Translations under genes and position numbers: made by a program
Virus record (IMG/VR): IMGVR_UViG_3300021400_000252
Reading direction: 5' to 3' (one strand)
From: a virus
Taxonomy: Duplodnaviria; Caudoviricetes
DNA length: 64,000 bases
Notes under the pieces: model-generated
Told to the model about the DNA's origin: nothing
Database searches by the model: none
Seen by the model: the letters and a program-made list of their open reading frames with translations, nothing else
Shown: positions 53,415 to 63,418 of the stretch, piece after piece
Layout of the letters: every line of letters begins with the position of its first letter
Position numbering within the stretch: the first letter of the stretch is position 1

Positions 53415-54002
53415 ATGTTAAATTATTTTAAAGAACAAATGTCTATAATTGAAAAGTCTTTAGAATCTTTATCTGAAGAGAACTTCAATGACATTTTAAA
53501 TCAAGCTGAAACCTGTATTAAAAATGGTGGAAAGCTAGTATTTTCAGGATTAGGAAAAAATGTTCCAATCTGTGAAAAGATTGTAGGTACTTGTACTTCA
53601 TTAAGTATTCCAGCTGTATTTATGCATACTAATACAGCAATGCATGGTGATTTAGGTTATATTGGTAAGAAAGATCTAGTTTTTGTCTTATCAAAGAGCG
53701 GTAATACTGCAGAGTCTATTTTACTTGCAAATTATTTAAATCAACGTGGCGATAGAGCTATAGCTGTTACTTTTAATAAGGACAGTTTATTAAATAAGAC
53801 TTTAAGTACTAATCTTACTTTAGAGTTAGAACATGAAGGCGATAATTGGAATATTGTTCCTAATGCGTCAAGTTCAACTTATTTAATTTTACTTCAAGGT
53901 TTAGCATTACAATTAGCTGATAGACTTGGAATTACATTAGTTGATTTTAAGTATAATCACCCAGGTGGAGCTATTGGAAGCATTCTAAAGGATGTAAAAT
54001 AA
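53415..54002 (+). CDS. SIS-domain sugar-phosphate isomerase (KdsD/KpsF-like, no CBS domains)
   Basis: SGLGKN, AMHGDLG, SKSGNT, HPGGAIG. Confidence 0.87.
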   Translation: MLNYFKEQMSIIEKSLESLSEENFNDILNQAETCIKNGGKLVFSGLGKNVPICEKIVGTCTSLSIPAVFMHTNTAMHGDLGYIGKKDLVFVLSKSGNTAESILLANYLNQRGDRAIAVTFNKDSLLNKTLSTNLTLELEHEGDNWNIVPNASSSTYLILLQGLALQLADRLGITLVDFKYNHPGGAIGSILKDVK

Positions 54003-54054
54003 TTGCTAAATTTTTAACATAGGCTTTGTATTATTACATTGTCTATGTTCTCTT

Positions 54055-54150
54055 AGGGGCTTGGTGTAACGGCAGCACAGCGGTCTTCAAAACCGTAAAA
54101 GGCCGAGTCCAAACCGGCCGGTGCGGGTTCGAATCCTGCAGCCCCTGCCA
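54055..54150 (+). tRNA. tRNA-Trp(TCA), UGA-decoding, long extra arm
   Basis: AGGGGCT/AGCCCCT-G-CCA acceptor, GCGGT-CT TCA AA-ACCGT anticodon arm, GGTTCGAATCC T arm. Confidence 0.92.
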
Positions 54151-54171
54151 GAACAAATAAAAAGTTAGGAG

Positions 54172-54804
54172 ATGATTCTAATGAGTTACTGTAAGAGATG
54201 TTATCTCGAAAAGATTAACCCAGAAGCAAGACAAGAAAACTTTATTTATTTTGAAGAACCAGGTAAGTGTGAATGCTGTGGTAAAACACGTTTATTAGTT
54301 GATTCTTATGAAAATGATGAAGATTATATGTCGATTGCAGAGTGTAATGAAGAAACAAGAAAGCATATTGCTATGGTACAATATTACATTAAATTAATTA
54401 CTGATGAATTAACTCAAAGAGGTATTGACCATGATGCATCTAAATTAGTTTCACCAGAAGTAGAGATTTTTGCTAAGAATACTAAAAAGTTAGCAAGATT
54501 AAAATTCCAAAATGAAAATGGTGAAATGAGTGAAGAATATAAACAAAGTCTAGAAAATATTAGTGAAGCAACAGCACATCACTATGCAGTTAATAGACAT
54601 CACCCAGAACATTATCCTGATGGAATTAATGGAATGGATCTAGTAGATATCTGTGAAATGTTAGCTGACTGGAAGGCTGCTTCATTAAGACAACATGATG
54701 GAAATCTATTAAAGTCTATTGAAGCAAATGCTAAGAGATTTGGAATTAGTCCACAATTAACTAAAATTTTGGTAAATACTGCAAAATTAATTGATAGAAA
54801 TTAA
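54172..54804 (+). CDS. HD-like protein (DUF5662-like) with N-terminal Cys motif
   Basis: HDASK, HHYAVNRHHPEHY, EMLADW. Confidence 0.72.
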   Translation: MILMSYCKRCYLEKINPEARQENFIYFEEPGKCECCGKTRLLVDSYENDEDYMSIAECNEETRKHIAMVQYYIKLITDELTQRGIDHDASKLVSPEVEIFAKNTKKLARLKFQNENGEMSEEYKQSLENISEATAHHYAVNRHHPEHYPDGINGMDLVDICEMLADWKAASLRQHDGNLLKSIEANAKRFGISPQLTKILVNTAKLIDRN

Positions 54805-54831
54805 AAAATTATAAAAAATTTCAAAAAAGTA

Positions 54832-54860
54832 TTTACAAATTTAAGATTTTGTTGTATATT
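54832..54860 (+). promoter_or_regulatory. Sigma70/SigA-type promoter
   Basis: TTTACA-17 nt-TATATT. Confidence 0.6.
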
Positions 54861-54914
54861 AGTAGTGAAGTTAATCAAAAACTTCAAAAAATTAAAAAAT
54901 TTTTAAAAAATATA

Positions 54915-54943
54915 TTTACAAAATCAAAAATTTATTGTATAAT
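54915..54943 (+). promoter_or_regulatory. Sigma70/SigA-type promoter
   Basis: TTTACA-17 nt-TATAAT. Confidence 0.75.
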
Positions 54944-55070
54944 ATAAATGTAAAATGATTTGGTGCTAGTAAGTTCGGAACTAGCTAAGTGGAAAAACCT
55001 AAGTCTCGGCCAAATTTATTTATATTATATGAAAAAATTTAAAAAATATTGTATAATATAAAGTAAACAA

Positions 55071-55704
55071 TTAAATATGCTTAATAATGATTACCTATTA
55101 CCCTAGTGAATGACCGTTTGTTACGGTGCTAGGATAGCGGCTGACAAAGATTCGTAGCTTGCAAAAAATCTTCGTTCATAGACGATAGCCTATGATGGCA
55201 AGTCGATTCGGAAGTATATATTGAAATCAAACCGAACACAATCTTCAAAGAAGAATTACGATAGTCGTTAGTGTATTTGTTATTATTAGAGTTAAGACAT
55301 GATTCTTCTCGGTTCCACAATAGATGATAACCAAAAGTTATATGAATCCTAGTTAGGAATAAGCCTGGAAAACTTACTCAAACCTAGGAAAATCCACAAG
55401 GGACTTGACAGTTGAATACCTAGTAATAGGGATATAAGAGAAGTTTACATGTGAGTAGCCGTATCTGTCGAATACAAAGAAGAACAACCCTTACTTAAAA
55501 GCATGGAACTTTTATAATGATTGTAATTATTTCTGAATACTCGGTGAAAGTTAGAGGTAATGAGTCCTCTCAGTGCTAGACAGCGGTAAGAAGTTTAGAG
55601 GTAGCTCCTTTAAGCTCAGACTTATCGTCACTGTAGTCAAACAACTACCTTAATAATGAAATAAGATGAAAGTCTAATAAGTAGTTATTATTAAGCATAT
55701 TTAA
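55071..55704 (+). ncRNA. Large structured ncRNA, ROOL-like (GOLLD is the alternative)
   Basis: About 630 nt without a credible ORF, closed by a 24-bp terminal stem (55071-55094 with 55681-55704, two G-U), many internal hairpins, upstream TGTATAAT, next to tRNA array. Confidence 0.72.
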
Positions 55705-55739
55705 TAAAAAATAAAAATTTTTGAATTGCTAAAAATAAT

Positions 55740-55750
55740 TAGCTAAATTA
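55740..55750 (+). promoter_or_regulatory. Putative late promoter TAGCTAAATTA upstream of tRNA-array leader
   Basis: Repeated intergenic motif. Confidence 0.62.
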
Positions 55751-55796
55751 AGTGATATCAAATCAGATATCAACAATCTATTTAGGAGATGAAATA

Positions 55797-55931
55797 ATGA
55801 GAACAGTTTTAATGACAAATGTATCTTGGAATTTTAATAACTATGTCTCTTCAAACGTTAATCCGTTTGGTTATTTCGATGCGCCTAATGCGAATGGGTA
55901 TGATGCCGATTATAGTAATTCAAATAAATAG
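55797..55931 (+). CDS. 44-aa leader peptide of the tRNA array (not in ORF track)
   Basis: AGGAG RBS; MRTVLMTNVSWNFNNYVSSNVNPFGYFDAPNANGYDADYSNSNK. Confidence 0.78.
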   Translation: MRTVLMTNVSWNFNNYVSSNVNPFGYFDAPNANGYDADYSNSNK

Positions 55932-56034
55932 AAGTTAAGTTACTGAAAGATGTAGCTTAACAAAAATTAAGCTACAATGAATAAAAGTATCAGTAACAGT
56001 TCCATAGATTGTTTTACATATATTCCCTTTGTTC

Positions 56035-56066
56035 AACGTAGCTAGATGGTTACGTTTTTTATTTTT
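56035..56066 (+). terminator. Attenuator-like terminator between leader and tRNA array
   Basis: AACGTAGCT-AGAT-GGTTACGTT plus T-run; competing upstream helices. Confidence 0.7.
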
Positions 56067-56137
56067 ATTAATATCTTACCGTTAGCTCCTCGGTTTTGAG
56101 CTTCGATCCGTTGTACGTTAAGCCTCGGTAATCCCAT

Positions 56138-56213
56138 GGGGTTGTAGCTCAGTTGGGAGAGCGCTAGCTTTGCAAGCTAGATGTCGCGAGTTCGAGCCTC
56201 GTCTTCTCCACCA
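56138..56213 (+). tRNA. tRNA-Ala(TGC)
   Basis: Cloverleaf, G3-U70, CCA; two T-T mismatches in acceptor stem. Confidence 0.9.
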
Positions 56214-56289
56214 GGGACCGCATGTTCTGAGATAGCGAGACAGTTTTGCAAACTGACTGTTGTGGGTTTGACTCCCACCGGCTCCACCA
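56214..56289 (+). tRNA. Atypical tRNA-Ala(TGC)
   Basis: G3-U70, loop TT TGC AA, T loop TTTGACT, divergent D arm, CCA. Confidence 0.7.
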
Positions 56290-56307
56290 CTAAAATTTAA
56301 TAACATA

Positions 56308-56367
56308 GAGCCTATACTTATTTCTAAAATCTAATAAAGTTCTTTGGGTGAATATAATAGTTAGGCC
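56308..56367 (+). ncRNA. Bulged-stem repeat RNA, copy 1
   Basis: GAG-CCTA-T-ACT-TATTTC...T-AGT-TAGG-CC. Confidence 0.68.
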
Positions 56368-56375
56368 AAGTTAAT

Positions 56376-56452
56376 GGGGGCTTAGCTCAGCTGGTTAGAG
56401 CAGTGGACTGTTAATCCACGTGTCGCAAGTTCGAATCTTGCAGTCCCCGCCA
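56376..56452 (+). tRNA. tRNA-Asn(GTT)
   Basis: Canonical cloverleaf, CCA. Confidence 0.95.
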
Positions 56453-56468
56453 ATAATTAAATATTAAT

Positions 56469-56561
56469 GTCGAGTTGGCAGAGTCTGGTTTATTGCGACG
56501 GTCTTGAAAACCGTTGACGGTGATGAGCCGTCCGTGGGTTCGAATCCTACACTCGACGCCA
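56469..56561 (+). tRNA. tRNA-Ser(TGA)
   Basis: Cloverleaf with long variable arm, G73, CCA. Confidence 0.93.
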
Positions 56562-56660
56562 TAGGTATGCTAGTGGTACCTATATGCGTGGTTTGTTAAG
56601 GGGTTTGTTAACAAGCATACAAAAATAACTAGTTCATGAAAATCAAATTCCACCGTATTT

Positions 56661-56736
56661 GCTCCGTTACGTCAACTGGGAGACTACAATCCCTACAAGA
56701 TTGTGGCTGTAGGTTCGAGTCCTGCACGGAGCACCA
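56661..56736 (+). tRNA. tRNA-Val(TAC), C33 variant
   Basis: CAATC-CC TAC AA-GATTG, canonical T arm, CCA. Confidence 0.85.
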
Positions 56737-56765
56737 TTAAAAATATTAAAGAAGGAGTTAAAGCG

Positions 56766-56843
56766 ATGTTTATCTTAAGTACACGATTTAGCAGCTTAAA
56801 ATTTAATACTTATATAAATGCCGCTTTAGCTGAAATAGATTAG
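56766..56843 (+). CDS. 25-aa Phe-codon leader peptide overlapping atypical tRNA-Phe
   Basis: AAGGAG RBS; MFILSTRFSSLKFNTYINAALAEID. Confidence 0.58.
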   Translation: MFILSTRFSSLKFNTYINAALAEID

Positions 56844-56894
56844 CACTAGGTTGAAGCCCTAGGGATGTTGGAGCATTACCAACAGGCGGCACCA
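56820..56894 (+). tRNA. Atypical tRNA-Phe(GAA), AGCATTA T loop
   Basis: All four stems pair; loop TT GAA GC; CCA. Confidence 0.75.
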
Positions 56895-56899
56895 TATAT

Positions 56900-56975
56900 G
56901 GACAGTTGGCATATGTGGTCTGTGCGCTAGTCTGAAGAACTAGATATCTTGGTTCGATTCCAAGACTGTCCACCA
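56900..56975 (+). tRNA. tRNA-Phe(GAA)
   Basis: Cloverleaf, loop CT GAA GA, CCA. Confidence 0.92.
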
Positions 56976-56983
56976 ACTTAAAT

Positions 56984-57060
56984 CCGGATTTAGCTCAGCT
57001 TGGTAGAGCACTTGGCCTGGGACCAAGGGGTCAGAGGTTCGAATCCTCTAATCCGGACCA
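56984..57060 (+). tRNA. tRNA-Pro(TGG), C33 variant
   Basis: C1-G72, loop CC TGG GA, CCA. Confidence 0.9.
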
Positions 57061-57078
57061 CTAAAAATTAAATAATTA

Positions 57079-57231
57079 GAGCCAAAGCTTATTTCAAATT
57101 TTCAGGGCACCTGCGTGTCGATGGTTCGAATCCATCCCTCCCGACCAGCTAATATAATTATTATATTAGTAGTTATATCTCGGGACGGTAGCTCAGTAGG
57201 TAGAGCAGCAGGATATAAATTTAGCTTGGCC
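57079..57231 (+). ncRNA. Bulged-stem repeat RNA, copy 2, with circularly permuted tRNA domain (YrlA-like)
   Basis: tRNA 3' half 57110-57147, hairpin linker, tRNA 5' half 57181-57212, enclosed by GAG-CCAA-A-GCT-TATTTC / T-AGC-TTGG-CC. Confidence 0.78.
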
Positions 57232-57239
57232 ATATTAAT

Positions 57240-57316
57240 GGTGTCATAGTTTAGTTGGTTAGAATGCCGGCCTGTCACGTCGGAGATCGCGGGTTCGAGT
57301 CCCGCTGGCACCGCCA
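57240..57316 (+). tRNA. tRNA-Asp(GTC)
   Basis: Canonical cloverleaf, G73, CCA. Confidence 0.95.
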
Positions 57317-57321
57317 TAACT

Positions 57322-57398
57322 CGGGATGTAGGCCAGTTGGTTAAGTCGCTGGTTTTGGGAACCAGAAATCGAGTGTTCGAGTCACTCCATTCCGACCA
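57322..57398 (+). tRNA. tRNA-Pro(TGG)
   Basis: C1-G72, loop TT TGG GA, CCA. Confidence 0.9.
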
Positions 57399-57440
57399 AA
57401 TAAGTTGTGGGTATAATAAGACTTGAAACCCTCGAAAAGT

Positions 57441-57515
57441 GTGCGAGTCGTTTAATGGTTAGGACTTCTGCCTTCCAAGCAGATGATGCCGGTTCGATTC
57501 CGGTCTCGTGCTCCA
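57441..57515 (+). tRNA. tRNA-Gly(TCC)
   Basis: Cloverleaf, U73, CCA. Confidence 0.92.
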
Positions 57516-57546
57516 GTAACAAAAATCTTTAAAGGAGAATAATGTC

Positions 57547-57618
57547 ATGGAATATTATTATTATTATCGATATTGCATTAAAAATTTAATAACTATATTT
57601 CGTGGCGTAGTTCGTTAA
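57547..57618 (+). CDS. 23-aa Tyr-run leader peptide overlapping atypical tRNA-Tyr
   Basis: AAAGGAG RBS 9 nt upstream; MEYYYYYRYCIKNLITIFRGVVR. Confidence 0.65.
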   Translation: MEYYYYYRYCIKNLITIFRGVVR

Positions 57619-57685
57619 AGAGGCGAGGAAGTCCGTAAAACTTTCATCTTAGATCCGCTGGGAGCATTACCCAGAGCCACGACCA
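57601..57685 (+). tRNA. Atypical tRNA-Tyr(GTA), AGCATTA T loop, C33
   Basis: CGTGGC/GCCACG acceptor, GAAGT-CC GTA AA-ACTTT, CTGGG/CCCAG T stem, CCA. Confidence 0.68.
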
Positions 57686-57689
57686 CTAT

Positions 57690-57774
57690 GGCCAGATAGT
57701 CTAGCGGCAATGACTGGAGACTGTAAATCTCCTCCCTTCGGGGTTCGTAGGTTCGAGTCCTACTCTGGCCACCA
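57690..57774 (+). tRNA. tRNA-Tyr(GTA)
   Basis: Canonical bacterial Tyr with variable arm, CCA. Confidence 0.94.
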
Positions 57775-57797
57775 TTTTATTGTATTATATATTATAT

Positions 57798-57872
57798 GTG
57801 GTAGTAGTATAACGGTTATTATACCTGGTTGCCATCCAGGAGATGGCGGTTCGATTCCGCTCTATCACTCCA
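57798..57872 (+). tRNA. tRNA-Gly(GCC)
   Basis: Cloverleaf, U73, CCA. Confidence 0.92.
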
Positions 57873-58067
57873 TAAATAGATATTATAAGGTACCTATAAT
57901 ATTCAGTGAAACTCTGATAGTGGTAAAAATACTTTATACTAATTGCAATGTCGTATAGAGTCACTTTGTCCGTACCGGTGAGGTCACACAATAAACTGTA
58001 TTCATCGGCCCATTTAAAAATAATTATTATATTAATAATATTAAATATAAAAAGGAAGTGTTTTATC

Positions 58068-58493
58068 ATGAGTAGTACAAGTATGTACTGGCGTGTTCAT
58101 AGTGACATGCAAACAGCAAGAAAAGAAAAGAATGAAGTTAATAAGAGCATCTTATCATTGCTTTATAGTGAGTTAAATAAGAAAGCTATTGAGTTAAGAG
58201 TTGAAGAGTTAACAGATGCAGATTCTACTAATGTAATCAAGAAATTTGCTAAGCAATTAGATGAAGAGATTGAGTCTAATGTAAAAGTTGGTAGAACAGA
58301 AAAAGCAAACGAATTAACTTATCAAAAGAATTTAATTCAAACATATTTACCTAAGCAATTAAGTGAAACTGAAATTAAAGATATTTTAGCTACTCTAGAG
58401 GATAAATCAATTCCTTCAGTAATGAAATACTTTAAGACAAATTATAATGGCTTAGTAGATATGAGCTTAGTAAGCAAGTTAGCAAGAATGTAA
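58068..58493 (+). CDS. GatB/YqeY domain protein
   Basis: AAGGAAG RBS before ATG 58068; YLPKQLSETEI, VMKY...GLVDM. Confidence 0.85.
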   Translation: MSSTSMYWRVHSDMQTARKEKNEVNKSILSLLYSELNKKAIELRVEELTDADSTNVIKKFAKQLDEEIESNVKVGRTEKANELTYQKNLIQTYLPKQLSETEIKDILATLEDKSIPSVMKYFKTNYNGLVDMSLVSKLARM

Positions 58494-58564
58494 ATTTAAT
58501 AAGTTCTCCAAGACAAGATAAAGTCTATAAAACCTAACAAATTTTAGAATAAGGAGAACTTACA

Positions 58565-58630
58565 ATGAATTTCTTACGCAGAATTGCAGATTTATTCGTG
58601 ATGGTTTTGATGTCTAGTATTAACGACTAA
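58565..58630 (+). CDS. 21-aa leader peptide upstream of tRNA-Met
   Basis: AAGGAG RBS; MNFLRRIADLFVMVLMSSIND. Confidence 0.55.
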   Translation: MNFLRRIADLFVMVLMSSIND

Positions 58631-58650
58631 TTAAAACCATCTTTTTTCTT
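58600..58650 (+). terminator. Terminator overlapping leader ORF, ending at tRNA-Met 5' end
   Basis: GATGGTTTTGAT / ATTAAAACCATC 12-bp stem plus TTTTTT. Confidence 0.6.
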
Positions 58651-58729
58651 GGCTCGGTAGCACAATTGGCTAATGCACTCGGTTCATACCCGAGAGATTT
58701 TGTGAGTTCGACTCTCACCCGAGCCACCA
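58651..58729 (+). tRNA. tRNA-Met(CAT), elongator type
   Basis: G1-C72, loop TT CAT AC, CCA. Confidence 0.85.
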
Positions 58730-58752
58730 TGATATTGTATATTATACTGTAT

Positions 58753-58826
58753 AGGTGCGTCGTTCAATGGTAGGACTGTGGTCTCCAAAACCGCGTATGA
58801 GGGTTCGAATCCTTCCGTGCCTGCCA
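58753..58826 (+). tRNA. tRNA-Trp(CCA)
   Basis: A1-U72, G73, loop CT CCA AA. Confidence 0.93.
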
Positions 58827-58846
58827 TAAAGAAAGGATATGATATC

Positions 58847-59143
58847 ATGGAAGTATATTTTATATCAATGTTAAAAGGATGGGACAAATATGGTCCTACA
58901 GGTCTTAGAACTGTTGGCTATTTTGAAAGCTTTGATGAAGCAGAAGAAAGAGTTATAGGTAATGTGTGTGATTTATATGAAGATGGTTATTGGCCATATG
59001 CAATAATTGAAAACATTGAACCTGGCTTATATCAAATTTGTGAACATCCAATATTTTATAAGTTTAACAAAGAAAAAGAACAATTTGAAAAGATTGATTT
59101 TCCAGAAGAACTTCAAATGTTTAGAGGTTTTACTATCGGGTAG
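58847..59143 (+). CDS. Hypothetical phage protein (98 aa)
   Basis: Track start overlaps tRNA-Trp; AAGGA RBS supports ATG 58847; RTVGYF...CDLYE...YAIIE. Confidence 0.72.
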   Translation: MEVYFISMLKGWDKYGPTGLRTVGYFESFDEAEERVIGNVCDLYEDGYWPYAIIENIEPGLYQICEHPIFYKFNKEKEQFEKIDFPEELQMFRGFTIG

Positions 59144-59153
59144 GAGGTAAGCT

Positions 59154-59660
59154 ATGAATTACATATTCTTAGATGTAGATGGTGTTCTTAATAATGAGAC
59201 ATATTTTCGTCAACACTTAGATGATGATGGAATTTTAGACGAAGAAAATATTAAATTATTAGCTGATTTAGTAAGTAAAACTAATGCTAATGTAGTATTA
59301 TCTTCTTCTTGGCGTACTCTATTTACAGAAAAAGGAAATCCTAGACGTCCTATCTTTGAAAATGGCACTCGTCGTGGTTTTGAATTAAAGAGACTATTAA
59401 AGAAATATGGAATTAAAATCATTGGTAGAACAGAGGTTGCTAAAAATAAATTTGGAGATTACTATGATGTTGGAGAACGTCCAGATGAGATCTTTAATTA
59501 TATAATGCATAACTTAACTGCTGGTGATAAATTTGTTATATTTGATGATGAAGATTTTAGAGGAGGTATGAAGAGATTTGCTAATAATTTTATCATTACT
59601 GATTGGAAGTATGGCTTACAAGAAAAAGATATCAAAAAAGCATTAAAGATATTATTATAA
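59154..59660 (+). CDS. HAD phosphatase of the Swiss-army-knife RNA-repair type
   Basis: IFLDVDGVLN, VVLSSSWR, FVIFDDE, GL. Confidence 0.85.
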   Translation: MNYIFLDVDGVLNNETYFRQHLDDDGILDEENIKLLADLVSKTNANVVLSSSWRTLFTEKGNPRRPIFENGTRRGFELKRLLKKYGIKIIGRTEVAKNKFGDYYDVGERPDEIFNYIMHNLTAGDKFVIFDDEDFRGGMKRFANNFIITDWKYGLQEKDIKKALKILL

Positions 59661-59684
59661 TGTTGTATAATAATATATGAACTT

Positions 59685-59775
59685 GGCGACTTACTCAAGC
59701 TGGTGAAGAGGACGCACTGCTAACGCGTTAGGCCGAGAGATCGGTGCGAGGGTTCGAACCCCTCAGTCGCCGCCA
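59685..59775 (+). tRNA. tRNA-Ser(GCT)
   Basis: Cloverleaf with long variable arm, G73, CCA. Confidence 0.93.
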
Positions 59776-60125
59776 AACAGTTGGTTGATTTAGTCACTAG
59801 GATACCAACACTCATTGGATGAAGACTAACGTCGCGAATGAGAGGTGAAGGAAGAGAATCTATCTTGGCAATTGCTATAGGATGGATTTTAAAGGATACG
59901 ACCTTCTACAAAGGATACCTAATCGTCCAAAAGTCCTTTTATTTAATTAAATATTAAAAATATATTTAAATTTTTTAAATAATATTGTATAATATATATG
60001 TGGATGCCTGAGTCTCTGAGTCGACGGTTAGATATCAGCCATTTAGCGATGGAAGTGATCTAATTATAGCGAAAGAGATAGCTACTGCAGAGCGAGCGTA
60101 CTACGGTCCCTCAGGCCTAATATAT

Positions 60126-60201
60126 TGCGGGCGAGTGAATGCGGTCTCACGCAGGGCTCATAACCCTGAAATACGCGGTTCGACTCCGCGGCCCGCAACC
60201 A
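60126..60201 (+). tRNA. Initiator-type tRNA-fMet(CAT)
   Basis: GGG/CCC at base of anticodon stem, loop CT CAT AA, T1-A72, CCA. Confidence 0.85.
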
Positions 60202-60238
60202 ATCGGTTGGGAATGGCAAACCCTCAAGCTCAGTTACC

Positions 60239-60576
60239 GATGCCAGAAAGACGATGCGATCGAGTTATTTATTTTCGATCTTAAATAAGATAATAGATCT
60301 GGAAATCTGGTTGGCTAGTTGGCGTGAACCTAGAAATAGGAGCGTTTGCAACAGACCTACAAGATGCGATCGTGAGTAGGCAAGCACAGGCAAGAGACAG
60401 AGAATGGGATGCTTTTAAATGTAAGCTACGGTTGAGTCATTCTGCAGAGGACACAAGGGTCACCAAGGATCAAAGACCAAAACACGGGTTGATAGTTTAA
60501 AATGGTAAAACGCCGGCATGAATGTCGGAAATGTTGTTCGAGACGATAATACCCACCAGGTTACGGTTCTGGCATC
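60239..60576 (+). ncRNA. Unidentified structured RNA with embedded tRNA-like domain
   Basis: GATGCCAGAA/TTCTGGCATC closing stem; GC-rich, no long ORF; tRNA-like 60486-60558. Confidence 0.5.
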
Positions 60577-60659
60577 TACACAAGCCATGGTTAGGAAGAT
60601 GCTAGCTTTAGCTAAAATATTGGCTAAATTATAAGTATTAAAATTTTATATGGAGACTA

Positions 60660-60791
60660 ATGATGGTAGTAACATTAATTTGTACTGCTATTATCTTAAT
60701 TGCATTTGGTTTTGCAGCTCATTATATTGATTCTTCTTATGAAGATTTCAAAGAATATATGGAAACTCAAAATAAATACAATGATAGATAG
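60660..60791 (+). CDS. 43-aa single-pass membrane peptide (not in ORF track)
   Basis: GGAG RBS; MMVVTLICTAIILIAFGFAAHY...; GGCTAAATTA upstream at 60622. Confidence 0.6.
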   Translation: MMVVTLICTAIILIAFGFAAHYIDSSYEDFKEYMETQNKYNDR

Positions 60792-60917
60792 TAACCTATA
60801 AATTTGCTTATAGCTAATTACTGTAAGCTAATTTTTAGAGATATCATGAAAACGTTTTCTTCAAATTCTCCAGAAAAATTTTAAAATTTATTGTATAATA
60901 TAATGATCAAATAATTA

Positions 60918-60999
60918 GAGGCTATACTTATTTCTTAAAAGTAGGTTATCACAGGTTCGAATCCTGTATCCGCCACTCGGCAGATATGTTAGTTAGTCC
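60918..60999 (+). ncRNA. Bulged-stem repeat RNA, copy 3, with T arm plus loop-closed acceptor stem
   Basis: GAG-GCTA-T-ACT-TATTTC...ACAGG TTCGAAT CCTGT ATCCGCC-ACTC-GGCAGAT...T-AGT-TAGT-CC. Confidence 0.75.
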
Positions 61000-61025
61000 T
61001 ATATTATTTGCTAAATTATGATGTA

Positions 61026-61122
61026 GAGGCTGTACTTATTTCTGAAGTTAAACAACTAATACAATATGAGATACTTGGATCATATGATCAAAGTGGTCTC
61101 ATATATCAAATTTAGTCAGTCC
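61026..61122 (+). ncRNA. Bulged-stem repeat RNA, copy 4
   Basis: GAG-GCTG-T-ACT-TATTTC...long hairpin...T-AGT-CAGT-CC; TTGCTAAATTA at 61008. Confidence 0.7.
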
Positions 61123-61145
61123 ATTAATTTAATAAAAAATTATTC

Positions 61146-61204
61146 GAGCCTATACTTATTTCGAAAAATTATAGAAGATCATGGAAAATACAGTTAGTTG
61201 GGCC
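61146..61204 (+). ncRNA. Bulged-stem repeat RNA, copy 5
   Basis: GAG-CCTA-T-ACT-TATTTC...T-AGT-TGGG-CC. Confidence 0.7.
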
Positions 61205-61229
61205 AATATAATTTACAAAAATATTCCTA

Positions 61230-61289
61230 GAGTTTATGCTTATTTCTCAAATAAAAAATAATAGGTTGATAGTAAGTAGTAGCTAAACC
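61230..61289 (+). ncRNA. Bulged-stem repeat RNA, copy 6
   Basis: GAG-TTTA-T-GCT-TATTTC...T-AGC-TAAA-CC. Confidence 0.7.
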
Positions 61290-61387
61290 AGAGAATATAA
61301 ATTTGAAAATTATTTGGCTTCCGGCATGAGTGTTGGAAGCTTTTAATTTTATATAAATAGTTAAAAAAGAAAGGAAGATTTAAAACT

Positions 61388-63418
61388 ATGACAAAACAAG
61401 AAATTTTATTTAAGAGACATTATTTATTAGAGGAAGTAGGCGTAGAACCATCAGTTACTACTGCTTATTTAAATGCGTACTTATTAGCTAACTTTGGTAT
61501 CGAAGTGGATAAGCCAGCTAAGTTAACAAAAGGAATGATTAAGTTAATCTCTGATACTATGCATTTAGATGTTCCACATTCATTCTATGCTAACCCTCAA
61601 CATATGAGATACTTCACTTCTGAAGAGTTATTAATTGAACAATTAGTTTCATATTTAGTTGTTGAATGTACTGGTAATGGTGCTATAGATCCAGAGCACC
61701 CAGAAAAGTACGATAGAATTGAAGTATTTAAGAAAACATTACCTAACTATGTAGTTGGTGATGAAATTAAGTTAAGAAAGTTCAATATCTTAACTAATGA
61801 TGAAGCTGACGTAGAATTAACAAAGATTGCTAAGTCTTATGCTGAATATACTCGTCCACTTTCATTAGATGAGAATGATGAATTTATGTTCTTACTTGAG
61901 AATGGATATTTTAAGGATGAATTTGGTATTGCATGTAAGGAGACTGTCTTTACATTAATTGACAATGTCGACATTTCTTATGCTAGATTCTTAGATAAGA
62001 AGGATATTGTAAAATATTCAGTATTAAAGTTTGGTGAAAATAAGTCTTTCAAGGATTTATCTAAGGAAGATTTAGCAACATTAAACTTCATTAGACAATT
62101 AGCAACTTATGCTCATTATTGCCCACTTTCTAAGAAACAAGCAAAGATGTATAATAAGTTAATCAAAGTAGCTGGAATCGATGAGAAGAAAGTTTCTAAT
62201 GATAAATCTCCAGATAAGTTAGCTATGGCTAAGTTAGATGCTGGTGATATTGTTGGTGCTGCAAAGATTTATGCTAAAAATGGTTCTATGTTAGAAAGAC
62301 ATATTAAGATGTTATTATCAAGAGCTAATCCAAGAGAAGCTATTGAAATCTTAGATTTATTACCAGCTAAGAATCCGATTGCATTATACCAAATGGTTGC
62401 AAATATGCAAGCTGATGGAAACGAAGCAAGAGTATTCTCATTCAAGAAACGTAATCTAACTAAGACTCATGTTGAAACTGAGTATGAAACTAAGTGGAGA
62501 AAGTCTAGATTAACTGAAGGTACTAAGAAATTATTACATGATGAAGCTTTAAATAAGATTGATGATCACTATAGTGAATTACCATCTTTAGGAAAGATCT
62601 ATATCAATCCAAACTTCTACAGAACTATGATTCCAACTAATACTTCAGCATCTGGTCAAGGTTTAGATGTACCTCCAACAGGTTCAAGAATTGCTATCAG
62701 AGGAACTGCTATTAGAACATTCGTTCGTTGGAAAGATATCCACGATGTAGATGCAGACTTCTCTGCTATTAAGGTTGATAAGTTTGGTAATTGTACATTT
62801 GGTAATTATATGTACTTCGGAAATTATCACGAAAAGCCATTTGGTAACGACGCATTATTCTCAGGTGATGATCGTTCAGCTAATGGTTGTGAATATGTTG
62901 ATATTGAATTAGAAGGTATGAAGAAACAAGGATATAGATACATTGTATTTGCATTCCATGGTTTTGCTGGAAAGTTCAACAACTGTGAAGTTGTTTGTGG
63001 ATATCAAGATAAGACTAACTTAGCAACTAAGGCTTGGGATCCAAAGAATATCGAATTCCAATTCAGAGTTCGTGGTGATTCAAGTGTTTGTCAAGCATTT
63101 GCTATTGACTTAGAGACTAAAGAAATTATTGTATTAAATCAAATGGACGACAGCATATCAAGAGTTGTAGATAAAAATACATTCAAGAGTGTTGCAAGAT
63201 ATTTAAACGATTCAGCTTTAGATCTATCTATGGGTAGAATTCTAGAACACCGTGGTGAAGTTGTAGCTACTCCTGAGGAAGCTGACATTGTGTTCGATAA
63301 TGAATATCAACCAACTGAGTCTCAAGTTGCAGTACGTTCTTACAATGTTGAAACATTAGTTTCTCTTGTAAATGATGGTACTATTGAATTACCAAAGAAG
63401 GAAATAGTAGAGGAGTAA
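61388..63418 (+). CDS. 676-aa protein, helical N-terminus plus TerD-like C-terminal domain
   Basis: IRTFVRW...DVDADF...FSGDD...GCEYVDIEL...RYIVF. Confidence 0.6.
   Translation: MTKQEILFKRHYLLEEVGVEPSVTTAYLNAYLLANFGIEVDKPAKLTKGMIKLISDTMHLDVPHSFYANPQHMRYFTSEELLIEQLVSYLVVECTGNGAIDPEHPEKYDRIEVFKKTLPNYVVGDEIKLRKFNILTNDEADVELTKIAKSYAEYTRPLSLDENDEFMFLLENGYFKDEFGIACKETVFTLIDNVDISYARFLDKKDIVKYSVLKFGENKSFKDLSKEDLATLNFIRQLATYAHYCPLSKKQAKMYNKLIKVAGIDEKKVSNDKSPDKLAMAKLDAGDIVGAAKIYAKNGSMLERHIKMLLSRANPREAIEILDLLPAKNPIALYQMVANMQADGNEARVFSFKKRNLTKTHVETEYETKWRKSRLTEGTKKLLHDEALNKIDDHYSELPSLGKIYINPNFYRTMIPTNTSASGQGLDVPPTGSRIAIRGTAIRTFVRWKDIHDVDADFSAIKVDKFGNCTFGNYMYFGNYHEKPFGNDALFSGDDRSANGCEYVDIELEGMKKQGYRYIVFAFHGFAGKFNNCEVVCGYQDKTNLATKAWDPKNIEFQFRVRGDSSVCQAFAIDLETKEIIVLNQMDDSISRVVDKNTFKSVARYLNDSALDLSMGRILEHRGEVVATPEEADIVFDNEYQPTESQVAVRSYNVETLVSLVNDGTIELPKKEIVEE

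Follow-up and report, generated by a model that had tools for sequence, protein, structure and literature searches.

A permuted, anticodon-less tRNA-like RNA on a bulged stem in a T4-like phage tRNA array and its linkage to the gene of a TerD-like protein

Introduction

Non-tRNA stable RNAs, species 1 and 2, are encoded in the transfer RNA (tRNA) cluster of phage T4, and their role is unknown. In the two-piece transfer-messenger RNAs (tmRNAs; Rfam RF04321), a CCA-bearing acceptor 3' strand is followed by an intervening segment, which is excised, and then by the acceptor 5' strand, resulting in a two-piece tRNA-like domain. Permuted genes for such tmRNAs were reportedly described in alpha-proteobacteria, cyanobacteria and others, by Keiler in 2000 and by Sharkady and Williams in 2004, and permuted tRNA genes are said to have been found in Cyanidioschyzon merolae and some archaea by Soma et al. 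in 2007. The system closest to the one presented here is that of Ro60 and the Y RNAs, including YrlA (RF02553; Chen et al. 2014, PMC4201824) and the phiLo Ro60-Yrl system (PMC12135203), in which a modular bulged terminal stem is combined with a tRNA-like module. Here, we analyse a stretch of 64,000 nucleotides (nt) of the IMG/VR virus record IMGVR_UViG_3300021400_000252, hereafter the window, whose tRNA array contains a permuted tRNA-like element at 57077-57234. We show the fold of this element, the family to which it belongs, the bulged stem that the family shares, hereafter the handle, and the linkage of this handle to the gene of a 676-amino-acid (aa) protein, P0001.

Results

Structure of the element

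The element (57077-57234, + strand) folds as a permuted, anticodon-less tRNA body closed by a bulged terminal stem. Within this stem, the order is anticodon-stem 3' strand, variable loop, T arm, acceptor 3' strand with ACCA, spacer, acceptor 5' strand, D arm, and anticodon-stem 5' strand. The following parts were distinguished.

57077-57095, + strand: 5' side of the handle, with the conserved UAGA (57077-80), a strand of the 5-base-pair (bp) helix (57081-85), the bulged A (57086), GCU (57087-89) and the single-stranded UAUUUC (57090-95), after the consensus of 63 handles
57096-57109, + strand: linker that begins with AAAUUU (57096-101), able to pair with 57217-57222, and ends with one strand, of 8 nt, of an internal loop (direct reading and minimum free energy fold)
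57110-57119, + strand: anticodon-stem 3' strand (57110-14), which pairs with 57208-57212, and 5-nt variable loop (57115-19)
57120-57136, + strand: T arm with a canonical UUCGAAU loop (Rfam YrlA alignment)
57137-57147, + strand: acceptor 3' strand (57137-43), discriminator A (57144) and CCA (57145-47), pairing with 57181-57188
57148-57180, + strand: AT-rich 33-nt spacer that interrupts the acceptor hairpin and contains a 9-bp hairpin (57149-57169; direct reading)
57181-57212, + strand: acceptor 5' strand (57181-88, with bulged C 57186), U8-A9 (57189-90), D arm (57191-57206), A26 (57207) and anticodon-stem 5' strand (57208-12), from reading, fold and alignment
57213-57234, + strand: linker and 3' side of the handle, in which AGC (57223-25) pairs with 57087-89 and UUGGC (57226-30) with 57081-85, followed by the conserved C (57231), from the family consensus and covariation

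The anticodon stem comprises 5 bp. An internal loop of 8/4 nt joins it to the handle, whose outer stem pairs 57081-57089 with 57223-57230. The acceptor exhibits 7 bp and one bulged C. The bases involved in tertiary contacts are all present, namely U8, A14, G18-G19, the R15-Y48 pair, and T54-Psi55-C56. The minimum free energy fold of 57075-57235 on the + strand gives the permuted topology, including the outer stem, and the linker at 57096-57109 is not conserved among relatives.

An earlier note on this DNA, which had been made from the letters of the sequence, described an inside-out tRNA at this place. Direct reading confirms the letters and coordinates that it gave for the two halves (57110-57147 and 57181-57212) as well as the AT-rich hairpin that it placed between them, and the proposed pairing of the acceptor and anticodon stems across the halves is borne out by the minimum free energy fold and by strong covariation. 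The stem that it saw in place of the anticodon loop is the bulged handle, which is conserved throughout the family. The suggested likeness to tRNA-Pro also holds, as the closest tRNA in the window is the adjacent tRNA-Pro, although by a small margin only. Neither ARAGORN nor Rfam calls an ordinary tRNA (RF00005) at 57061-57239, and a promoter and terminator scan of the tRNA array was uninformative for the element.

Conservation of the fold among relatives

A neighbouring protein led to two related phages in IMG/VR, one of which has a YrlA-like match whose flanking sequence is that of the element. A pattern scan of IMG/VR, combined with scripts, yielded 77 distinct handle-built elements. Full-length permuted members, the element included, amount to 25 distinct sequences in phage contigs, and 18 members with a permuted tRNA-like cargo form the alignment A1 used for the covariation analysis. 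RNAalifold recovered the handle, T, acceptor, and D helices from this alignment, with compensatory changes in 19 of 24 pairs. When the 29-pair structure was evaluated on the 18 relatives, 94.7% of the cells were paired and double changes were found in 22 of the 29 pairs; slid partners gave 30-46% pairing and none of 500 shuffles reached the observed values.

The eight pairs of the handle are kept in all 18 aligned members, with double changes in six of them. The T helix is paired at 98.9%, with four of five pairs covarying, and the D helix at 98.6%, while all seven acceptor pairs covary. The anticodon helix is paired at 82.5% and shows double changes in three of five pairs. The strand is +, as fixed by the G-U pairs and by the T- and D-loop sequences. 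With R1, a covariance model built from the relatives, the element scores 94.1 bits (E about 1e-17), compared with 31-42 bits for ordinary tandem-tRNA junctions.

The orthologue L168:1261-1425 is syntenic, lies between tRNA-Asp and tRNA-Pro, and keeps the fold, its acceptor being a perfect compensated 7-bp helix; the partner protein of its phage is 69% identical to P0001. This orthologue also keeps a long AT-rich spacer of similar length and different sequence. Thus, the relatives, L168 among them, exhibit a conserved fold and not the two decayed tandem tRNA genes that the earlier note had named as the finding that would speak against it. Its description of an anticodon-less permuted tRNA mimic with the topology of YrlA is supported by the fold, by a match to the core of the Rfam YrlA model, and by the covariation in the 18 relatives.

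The acceptor is closed by a loop of 2-9 nt in 15 of the 25 permuted members. In the remaining 10 of the 25, which represent about seven separate lineages, N-CCA stands directly 3' of the 7-bp acceptor 3' strand, and the loops after it vary from a single base up to nested handle hairpins. The CCA recurs far above the 1-in-64 chance per site, yet it is not fixed, so that the retained internal CCA claimed for the element is present there and in part of the family only. The motif may have been carried over when CCA-encoding phage tRNA genes were captured, it may serve as a functional end in some copies, or both may apply.

Two nested elements were observed, at L001:7141-7324 and L117:10893-11075 (+ strand), in which a short handle hairpin with a Pro-type UUUGGGU loop lies inside the acceptor loop of a permuted handle RNA; both nested hairpins come directly after ACCA. 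At L002:9456-9569 (+ strand), a permuted module with G-CCA and an AT-rich spacer is closed by a different 9-bp outer stem, and this relative has neither the handle motif nor the protein.

The handle and its cargos

The consensus drawn from 63 distinct handles of loci selected by the protein comprises UAGA, a 5-bp helix, one bulged base, a 3-bp helix (RCU with AGY), an invariant UAUUUC, the cargo, the two 3' strands, and a C. The bulged base is usually a U and is an A in the element. There are six copies of the handle on the + strand of the tRNA region of the window and six in the related locus L001. Across 45 loci selected by the protein, 142 copies of the octamer CUUAUUUC lie on the gene strand and 19 on the opposite one. 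A 5+3-bp partner within 200 nt is found for 106 of the 142 gene-strand octamers and for one of the 19 on the other strand; this count was selected on the octamer alone, since prior selection on perfect handle pairing had biased the first helix.

Rfam searches at permissive thresholds over 54000-61500 returned no family that fits the handle RNAs. The handle RNA family is absent from Rfam 15 and is apparently undescribed; a literature search found nothing on the handle or on P0001, the nearest reports being those on YrlA and on phage Ro60. Besides the element, the handle RNAs of the window include the following.

56306-56370, + strand: sister handle RNA of the short class (41.5 bits), with a loop UUUGGGU that resembles the anticodon loop of tRNA-Pro(UGG)
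60916-61002, + strand: sister handle RNA with only a T arm and a capped stem (47.1 bits)
61024-61292, + strand: three handle RNAs directly upstream of the protein gene, at 61024-61125, 61144-61207 and 61228-61292

Four classes of cargo are carried by the handle. The short hairpins are 50-75 nt long, and a subset of them exhibit loops identical to the anticodon loops of tRNA-Pro(UGG) or tRNA-Lys(UUU); the UGGG motif is present in 12 of 75 short-class cargos versus 0.6 expected from shuffles. The second class consists of T-arm-only modules, of which 60916-61002 in the window is an example. The third class consists of normal-order tRNA look-alikes attached by their acceptor end, in which the acceptors or anticodon loops are defective (for example L001:8923-9038). 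The permuted bodies, which form the fourth class, are attached by their anticodon end; in the element, the acceptor/elbow end is exposed. As both normal-order and permuted cargos exist, the handle family displays either end of a tRNA on one stem.

Linkage of the handle to P0001

The candidate partner was identified through its gene.

61388-63418, + strand: gene of the 676-aa candidate partner protein P0001 (gene linkage)

When the proteins of the window were searched by TBLASTN, this gene was the only one recurring beside handle RNAs, in 13 RNA-selected loci. The reverse selection, by the protein alone, gave the 45 loci mentioned above (25 from IMG/VR and 20 from genome_contigs), and in 41 of them the octamer is located at most 450 nt upstream of the P0001-homologue gene, on the same strand. 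The other four loci are L147, L152, L153, and L164. The gene is truncated or partial in L153 and L164, and the sequence upstream of it is limited to 204 nt in L147; handle RNAs lie downstream of the gene in both L147 and L152. Most close relatives exhibit one to three permuted tRNA-like handle RNAs just downstream of the protein gene. No other gene is conserved as a neighbour in the examined loci.

In the complete relative G001, which encodes the protein, nine handle motifs are present, each on the strand of the protein gene, and six of the nine lie in the tRNA array, 90 kb away from this gene. The relative G002 has no P0001-type protein and at most one handle motif. In divergent loci, in which the protein is 37-42% identical and the GC content reaches 63%, the handle is part of a unit that runs from a TTGACA/TATAAT promoter to a terminator and ends with an extra outer stem and a U-run, adjoining the ribosome-binding site of the protein gene. 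In these loci, the 3-bp helix is changed to UCU with AGA and UAUUUC is unchanged. In the contigs L154-L163, which belong to metagenome-assembled genomes (MAGs), a handle RNA with its own promoter and terminator lies about 70-190 nt upstream of the gene, a layout that resembles a transcription-attenuating leader.

The loci found in MAGs are labelled mostly Clostridia, Christensenellaceae, Anaeroplasmataceae, Mollicutes, and Erysipelotrichaceae, with one Bacteroidales; the system occurs in large T4-like phages, the hosts of which are probably gut and rumen Firmicutes. An exact 25-mer from the element had no match in IMG/VR. When the element and the array were compared by BLASTN with 50,697 cultured-phage records, generic tRNA pieces were the only matches, and TBLASTN of P0001 against cultured phages gave distant partial matches to its TerD-like part only. 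Therefore, no isolate carrying the handle-protein system was found.

P0001 has at least 511 homologues, none of which is annotated, and it matches no Pfam family even at E 10. Residues 282-581 are homologous to the core of NCBIfam NF041916, the MXAN_6230/SCO0854 RING-protein family (E 2e-17), although this match is far below the cut-off of the model. In the ESM Atlas, the neighbours of P0001 are labelled TerD-like. The AlphaFold2 model of the protein (predicted local distance difference test score 83.4) exhibits a C-terminal TerD-like beta-sandwich at about 438-602, which matches 2qz7 with a Z-score of 12.9 and a root-mean-square deviation (rmsd) of 2.3 A over 147 residues. Foldseek against the Protein Data Bank (PDB) returned TerD only, for this C-terminal domain, and PDB searches with the sequence of P0001 and with its profile gave no match. 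For the helical N-terminal region, of which 348 residues were folded alone, no fold match exceeded a Z-score of 6.2.

According to the sequence-profile and fold comparisons, P0001 is probably not a Ro60. The phiLo Ro60 chain 9l5y_B aligns to it with a Z-score of 4.8 and an rmsd of about 7 A, which is within the noise for helical proteins, and hhalign gives a probability of 0.8% for homology with the Ro60 of mycobacteriophage Bxz1.

Comparison with described RNAs

The element resembles YrlA (RF02553) in having the order T arm, acceptor-like hairpin, and D arm, closed by a stem. However, it scores 26.6 bits against a gathering threshold of 69, over model positions 23-85 of 114 and with an E-value of 0.0011 for a 401-nt stretch, and the best relative reaches 33.8 bits. 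Rsr contacts a GNCGAA(N)G / CGAA motif close to YrlA's 5' end (PMC4201824; PMC12135203); this motif is lacking in the element, the 5' strand of which is the handle. No TROVE (rsr) gene is present within 4 kb of the element, nor in the relatives G001 and G002. As the element departs from YrlA in every criterion except topology, it is best classed with the Y RNAs, among which its stem and its candidate partner are new.

The resemblance to Y RNAs as a group goes further. In both cases, the terminal stem is bulged and modular and carries a tRNA-like module, several paralogous RNAs per genome share the stem, some of them with a T arm only, and the RNAs are located beside one protein gene on the same strand. 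Both orientations of the tRNA module exist among Y RNAs (YrlA versus Yrn1), as among the handle RNAs. In contrast, the handle exhibits an invariant UAUUUC and a single bulged base, its cargo is far more varied and includes anticodon-loop look-alikes, and copies are found inside a phage tRNA array next to a ROOL RNA. The proteins also differ, Ro60 consisting of TROVE and vWA domains and P0001 of an unclassified helical domain and a TerD-like sandwich.

The layout of internal CCA, spacer, and acceptor 5' strand recalls that of two-piece tmRNA, the spacer of which is excised. Unlike the latter, the element lacks a tag reading frame, pseudoknots, and the G3-U70 identity for Ala, the 3-70 pair being G-C; ARAGORN calls no tmRNA at the element, and Rfam gives only a 6.3-bit match to the T loop. 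With the permuted tRNA genes of C. merolae and archaea, the element shares the encoding of the 3' half before the 5' half and the formation of the acceptor and anticodon stems by the two halves. Those genes exhibit a true anticodon loop, a bulge-helix-bulge, a splicing endonuclease, and decoding tRNAs, none of which is seen in the element. Species 1 and 2 of T4 are likened to it by location alone, as non-tRNA RNAs inside the tRNA cluster of a T4-like phage.

Genomic context

The window is AT-rich (about 28% GC), with every long open reading frame (ORF) on the + strand. The genes of a T4-like portal and of a Gp23 capsid protein show that it is part of a large T4-like phage genome. ARAGORN detects 17 tRNA genes across 54055-60201, and a ROOL RNA stands at the head of this region.

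55078-55695, + strand: full-length ROOL RNA (Rfam 246.9 bits, model positions 1-574)

The element lies between tRNA-Pro (56984-57060, upstream) and tRNA-Asp (57240-57316, downstream), and the ORFs within 4 kb of it encode SIS, DUF5662, YqeY, one unknown, HAD_SAK_2, and P0001. Inside the array, on the + strand, are the gene of HAD_SAK_2 (59154-59660), a 'Swiss Army Knife' RNA-repair HAD, and that of the YqeY-like protein (57948-58493); both genes are syntenic in the relatives L167-L169.

Several other features of the array were observed. A tRNA with the anticodon UCA, which ARAGORN labels SeC, is present at 54055-54150 (+ strand) in the window, at L001:273-347, and at L002:1365-1440; that of the window is 96 nt long, implying a long extra arm. 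Directly 3' of tRNA-Ala, a 76-nt tRNA-like unit (56214-56289, + strand) receives no ARAGORN call; it exhibits an acceptor ending in ACCA, a T arm, a UUUGCAA loop (Ala UGC-type), and an aberrant-looking D region, and its only Rfam match is a gapped one to tmRNA (22.7 bits). A GC-richer non-coding stretch of about 400 nt (60203-60650, + strand) lies 3' of the last tRNA-Met; it contains no ORF, has no Rfam match at E<=1, and may be another structured RNA.

Discussion

Based on these results, we propose that the element is a small phage RNA with the modular construction of a Y RNA, in which the handle docks P0001 and the cargo engages tRNA-binding factors, and we give this reading a probability of roughly 0.6. 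The handle would be the docking site of the TerD-domain protein encoded 4.2 kb downstream, as the gene linkage suggests, and the handle RNAs in the leader of the P0001 gene may allow the protein to exert feedback on its own expression. The tRNA shape and the precedent of YrlA suggest that the cargo would engage RNase P, CCA-adding or modification enzymes, or host tRNA-targeting nucleases.

Several points weigh against this proposal. The energy z-score of the single sequence is modest (-2.2), so that the case depends on the comparison with relatives. The closest orthologue, L168, lacks the bulged C of the acceptor and reads A-A-C-A at the CCA site; since the CCA has been lost there, an exposed CCA end may have been left over from the capture of a tRNA and have no function. 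G002 carries a permuted tRNA-like module with another outer stem and no handle, and the tRNA-like module can therefore exist without a P0001-type protein. Finally, we infer the binding of P0001 to the handle from synteny alone.

An opening of the element appears plausible by the precedent of M. smegmatis YrlA, whose 7-bp acceptor RNase P cleaves both in vitro and in vivo, after which CA is added (PMC4201824). In the element, cleavage by RNase P could take place just 5' of 57181 and the trimming of the 3' end could halt at 57147, so that a two-piece mimic whose CCA end is free would result. A more far-reaching version of our proposal can be put forward only tentatively: the handle RNAs and P0001 may constitute a new phage ribonucleoprotein, convergent with Ro60-Y RNA, whose interchangeable tRNA parts would decoy, sense, or recruit host enzymes such as anticodon nucleases, with RNase P making the two-piece mimic.

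The alternative that survives best, although we consider it rather unlikely, is that the handle is an RNA punctuation, processing or attenuator element or a ligand-sensing leader, and that the cargo acts alone, for instance as a decoy for those defence nucleases of the host that cleave tRNAs. The divergent loci, in which the handle lies between a sigma-70-like promoter and a U-run terminator adjoining the ribosome-binding site, fit a leader or attenuator. The short cargos with tRNA-Lys(UUU) and tRNA-Pro(UGG) anticodon loops, their excess of UGGG, and the permuted module of G002, which has neither handle nor protein, also speak for this alternative. Nevertheless, the sequence of the handle is kept across 37-100% protein identity and very different cargos, and many copies are far from gene starts, such as those of G001. 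A shared trans-acting partner is therefore a better fit than just a cis leader.

A canonical YrlA-type Y RNA working with a Ro60/Rsr encoded by the host would have the same topology and would account for the match to the core of the Rfam YrlA model. Some gut bacteria encode Rsr, and a TROVE control search matches Bacteroides thetaiotaomicron. We regard this as improbable in view of the score far below gathering, the lacking motif, the lack of a TROVE gene near the element or in G001, and the absence of homology between P0001 and the Ro60 of Bxz1 in the profile comparison.

The earlier note had also considered a spliced permuted tRNA, and a true tRNA gene in permuted or split form, whose product would become a decoding tRNA-Pro by circularisation or splicing, now appears very improbable. 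Its halves are complete, with the tertiary-contact bases and a Pro-like C1-G72, A73, and CCA, and some handle RNAs, including the two nested ones, carry a Pro-type anticodon loop. However, the nucleotides at the junction cannot form a 7-nt anticodon loop, no bulge-helix-bulge is present, and the majority of the relatives, with their short acceptor loop, have no free acceptor end unless cleaved. Moreover, two intact tRNA-Pro(UGG) genes flank the element. Functionless debris of two tandem tRNA genes can practically be dismissed: the succession of ACCA, spacer, and 5' end does resemble an inter-tRNA junction, and both the YrlA model and R1 weakly match true tandem junctions, but the outer halves are replaced by a conserved handle, the halves pair with each other with compensatory changes in most pairs, and the element scores 94 bits against 31-42 for real junctions.

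If the handle is indeed the binding site of P0001, the system would represent a second, independent invention of the Y RNA principle, which combines a protein-docking stem with a tRNA-mimic module. The finding bears on the reason why phage tRNA arrays carry non-tRNA RNAs, on the function of TerD-like domains, and on tRNA mimicry in the conflict between phage and host. In addition, the naturally varied cargos on one scaffold provide a ready-made mutational series.
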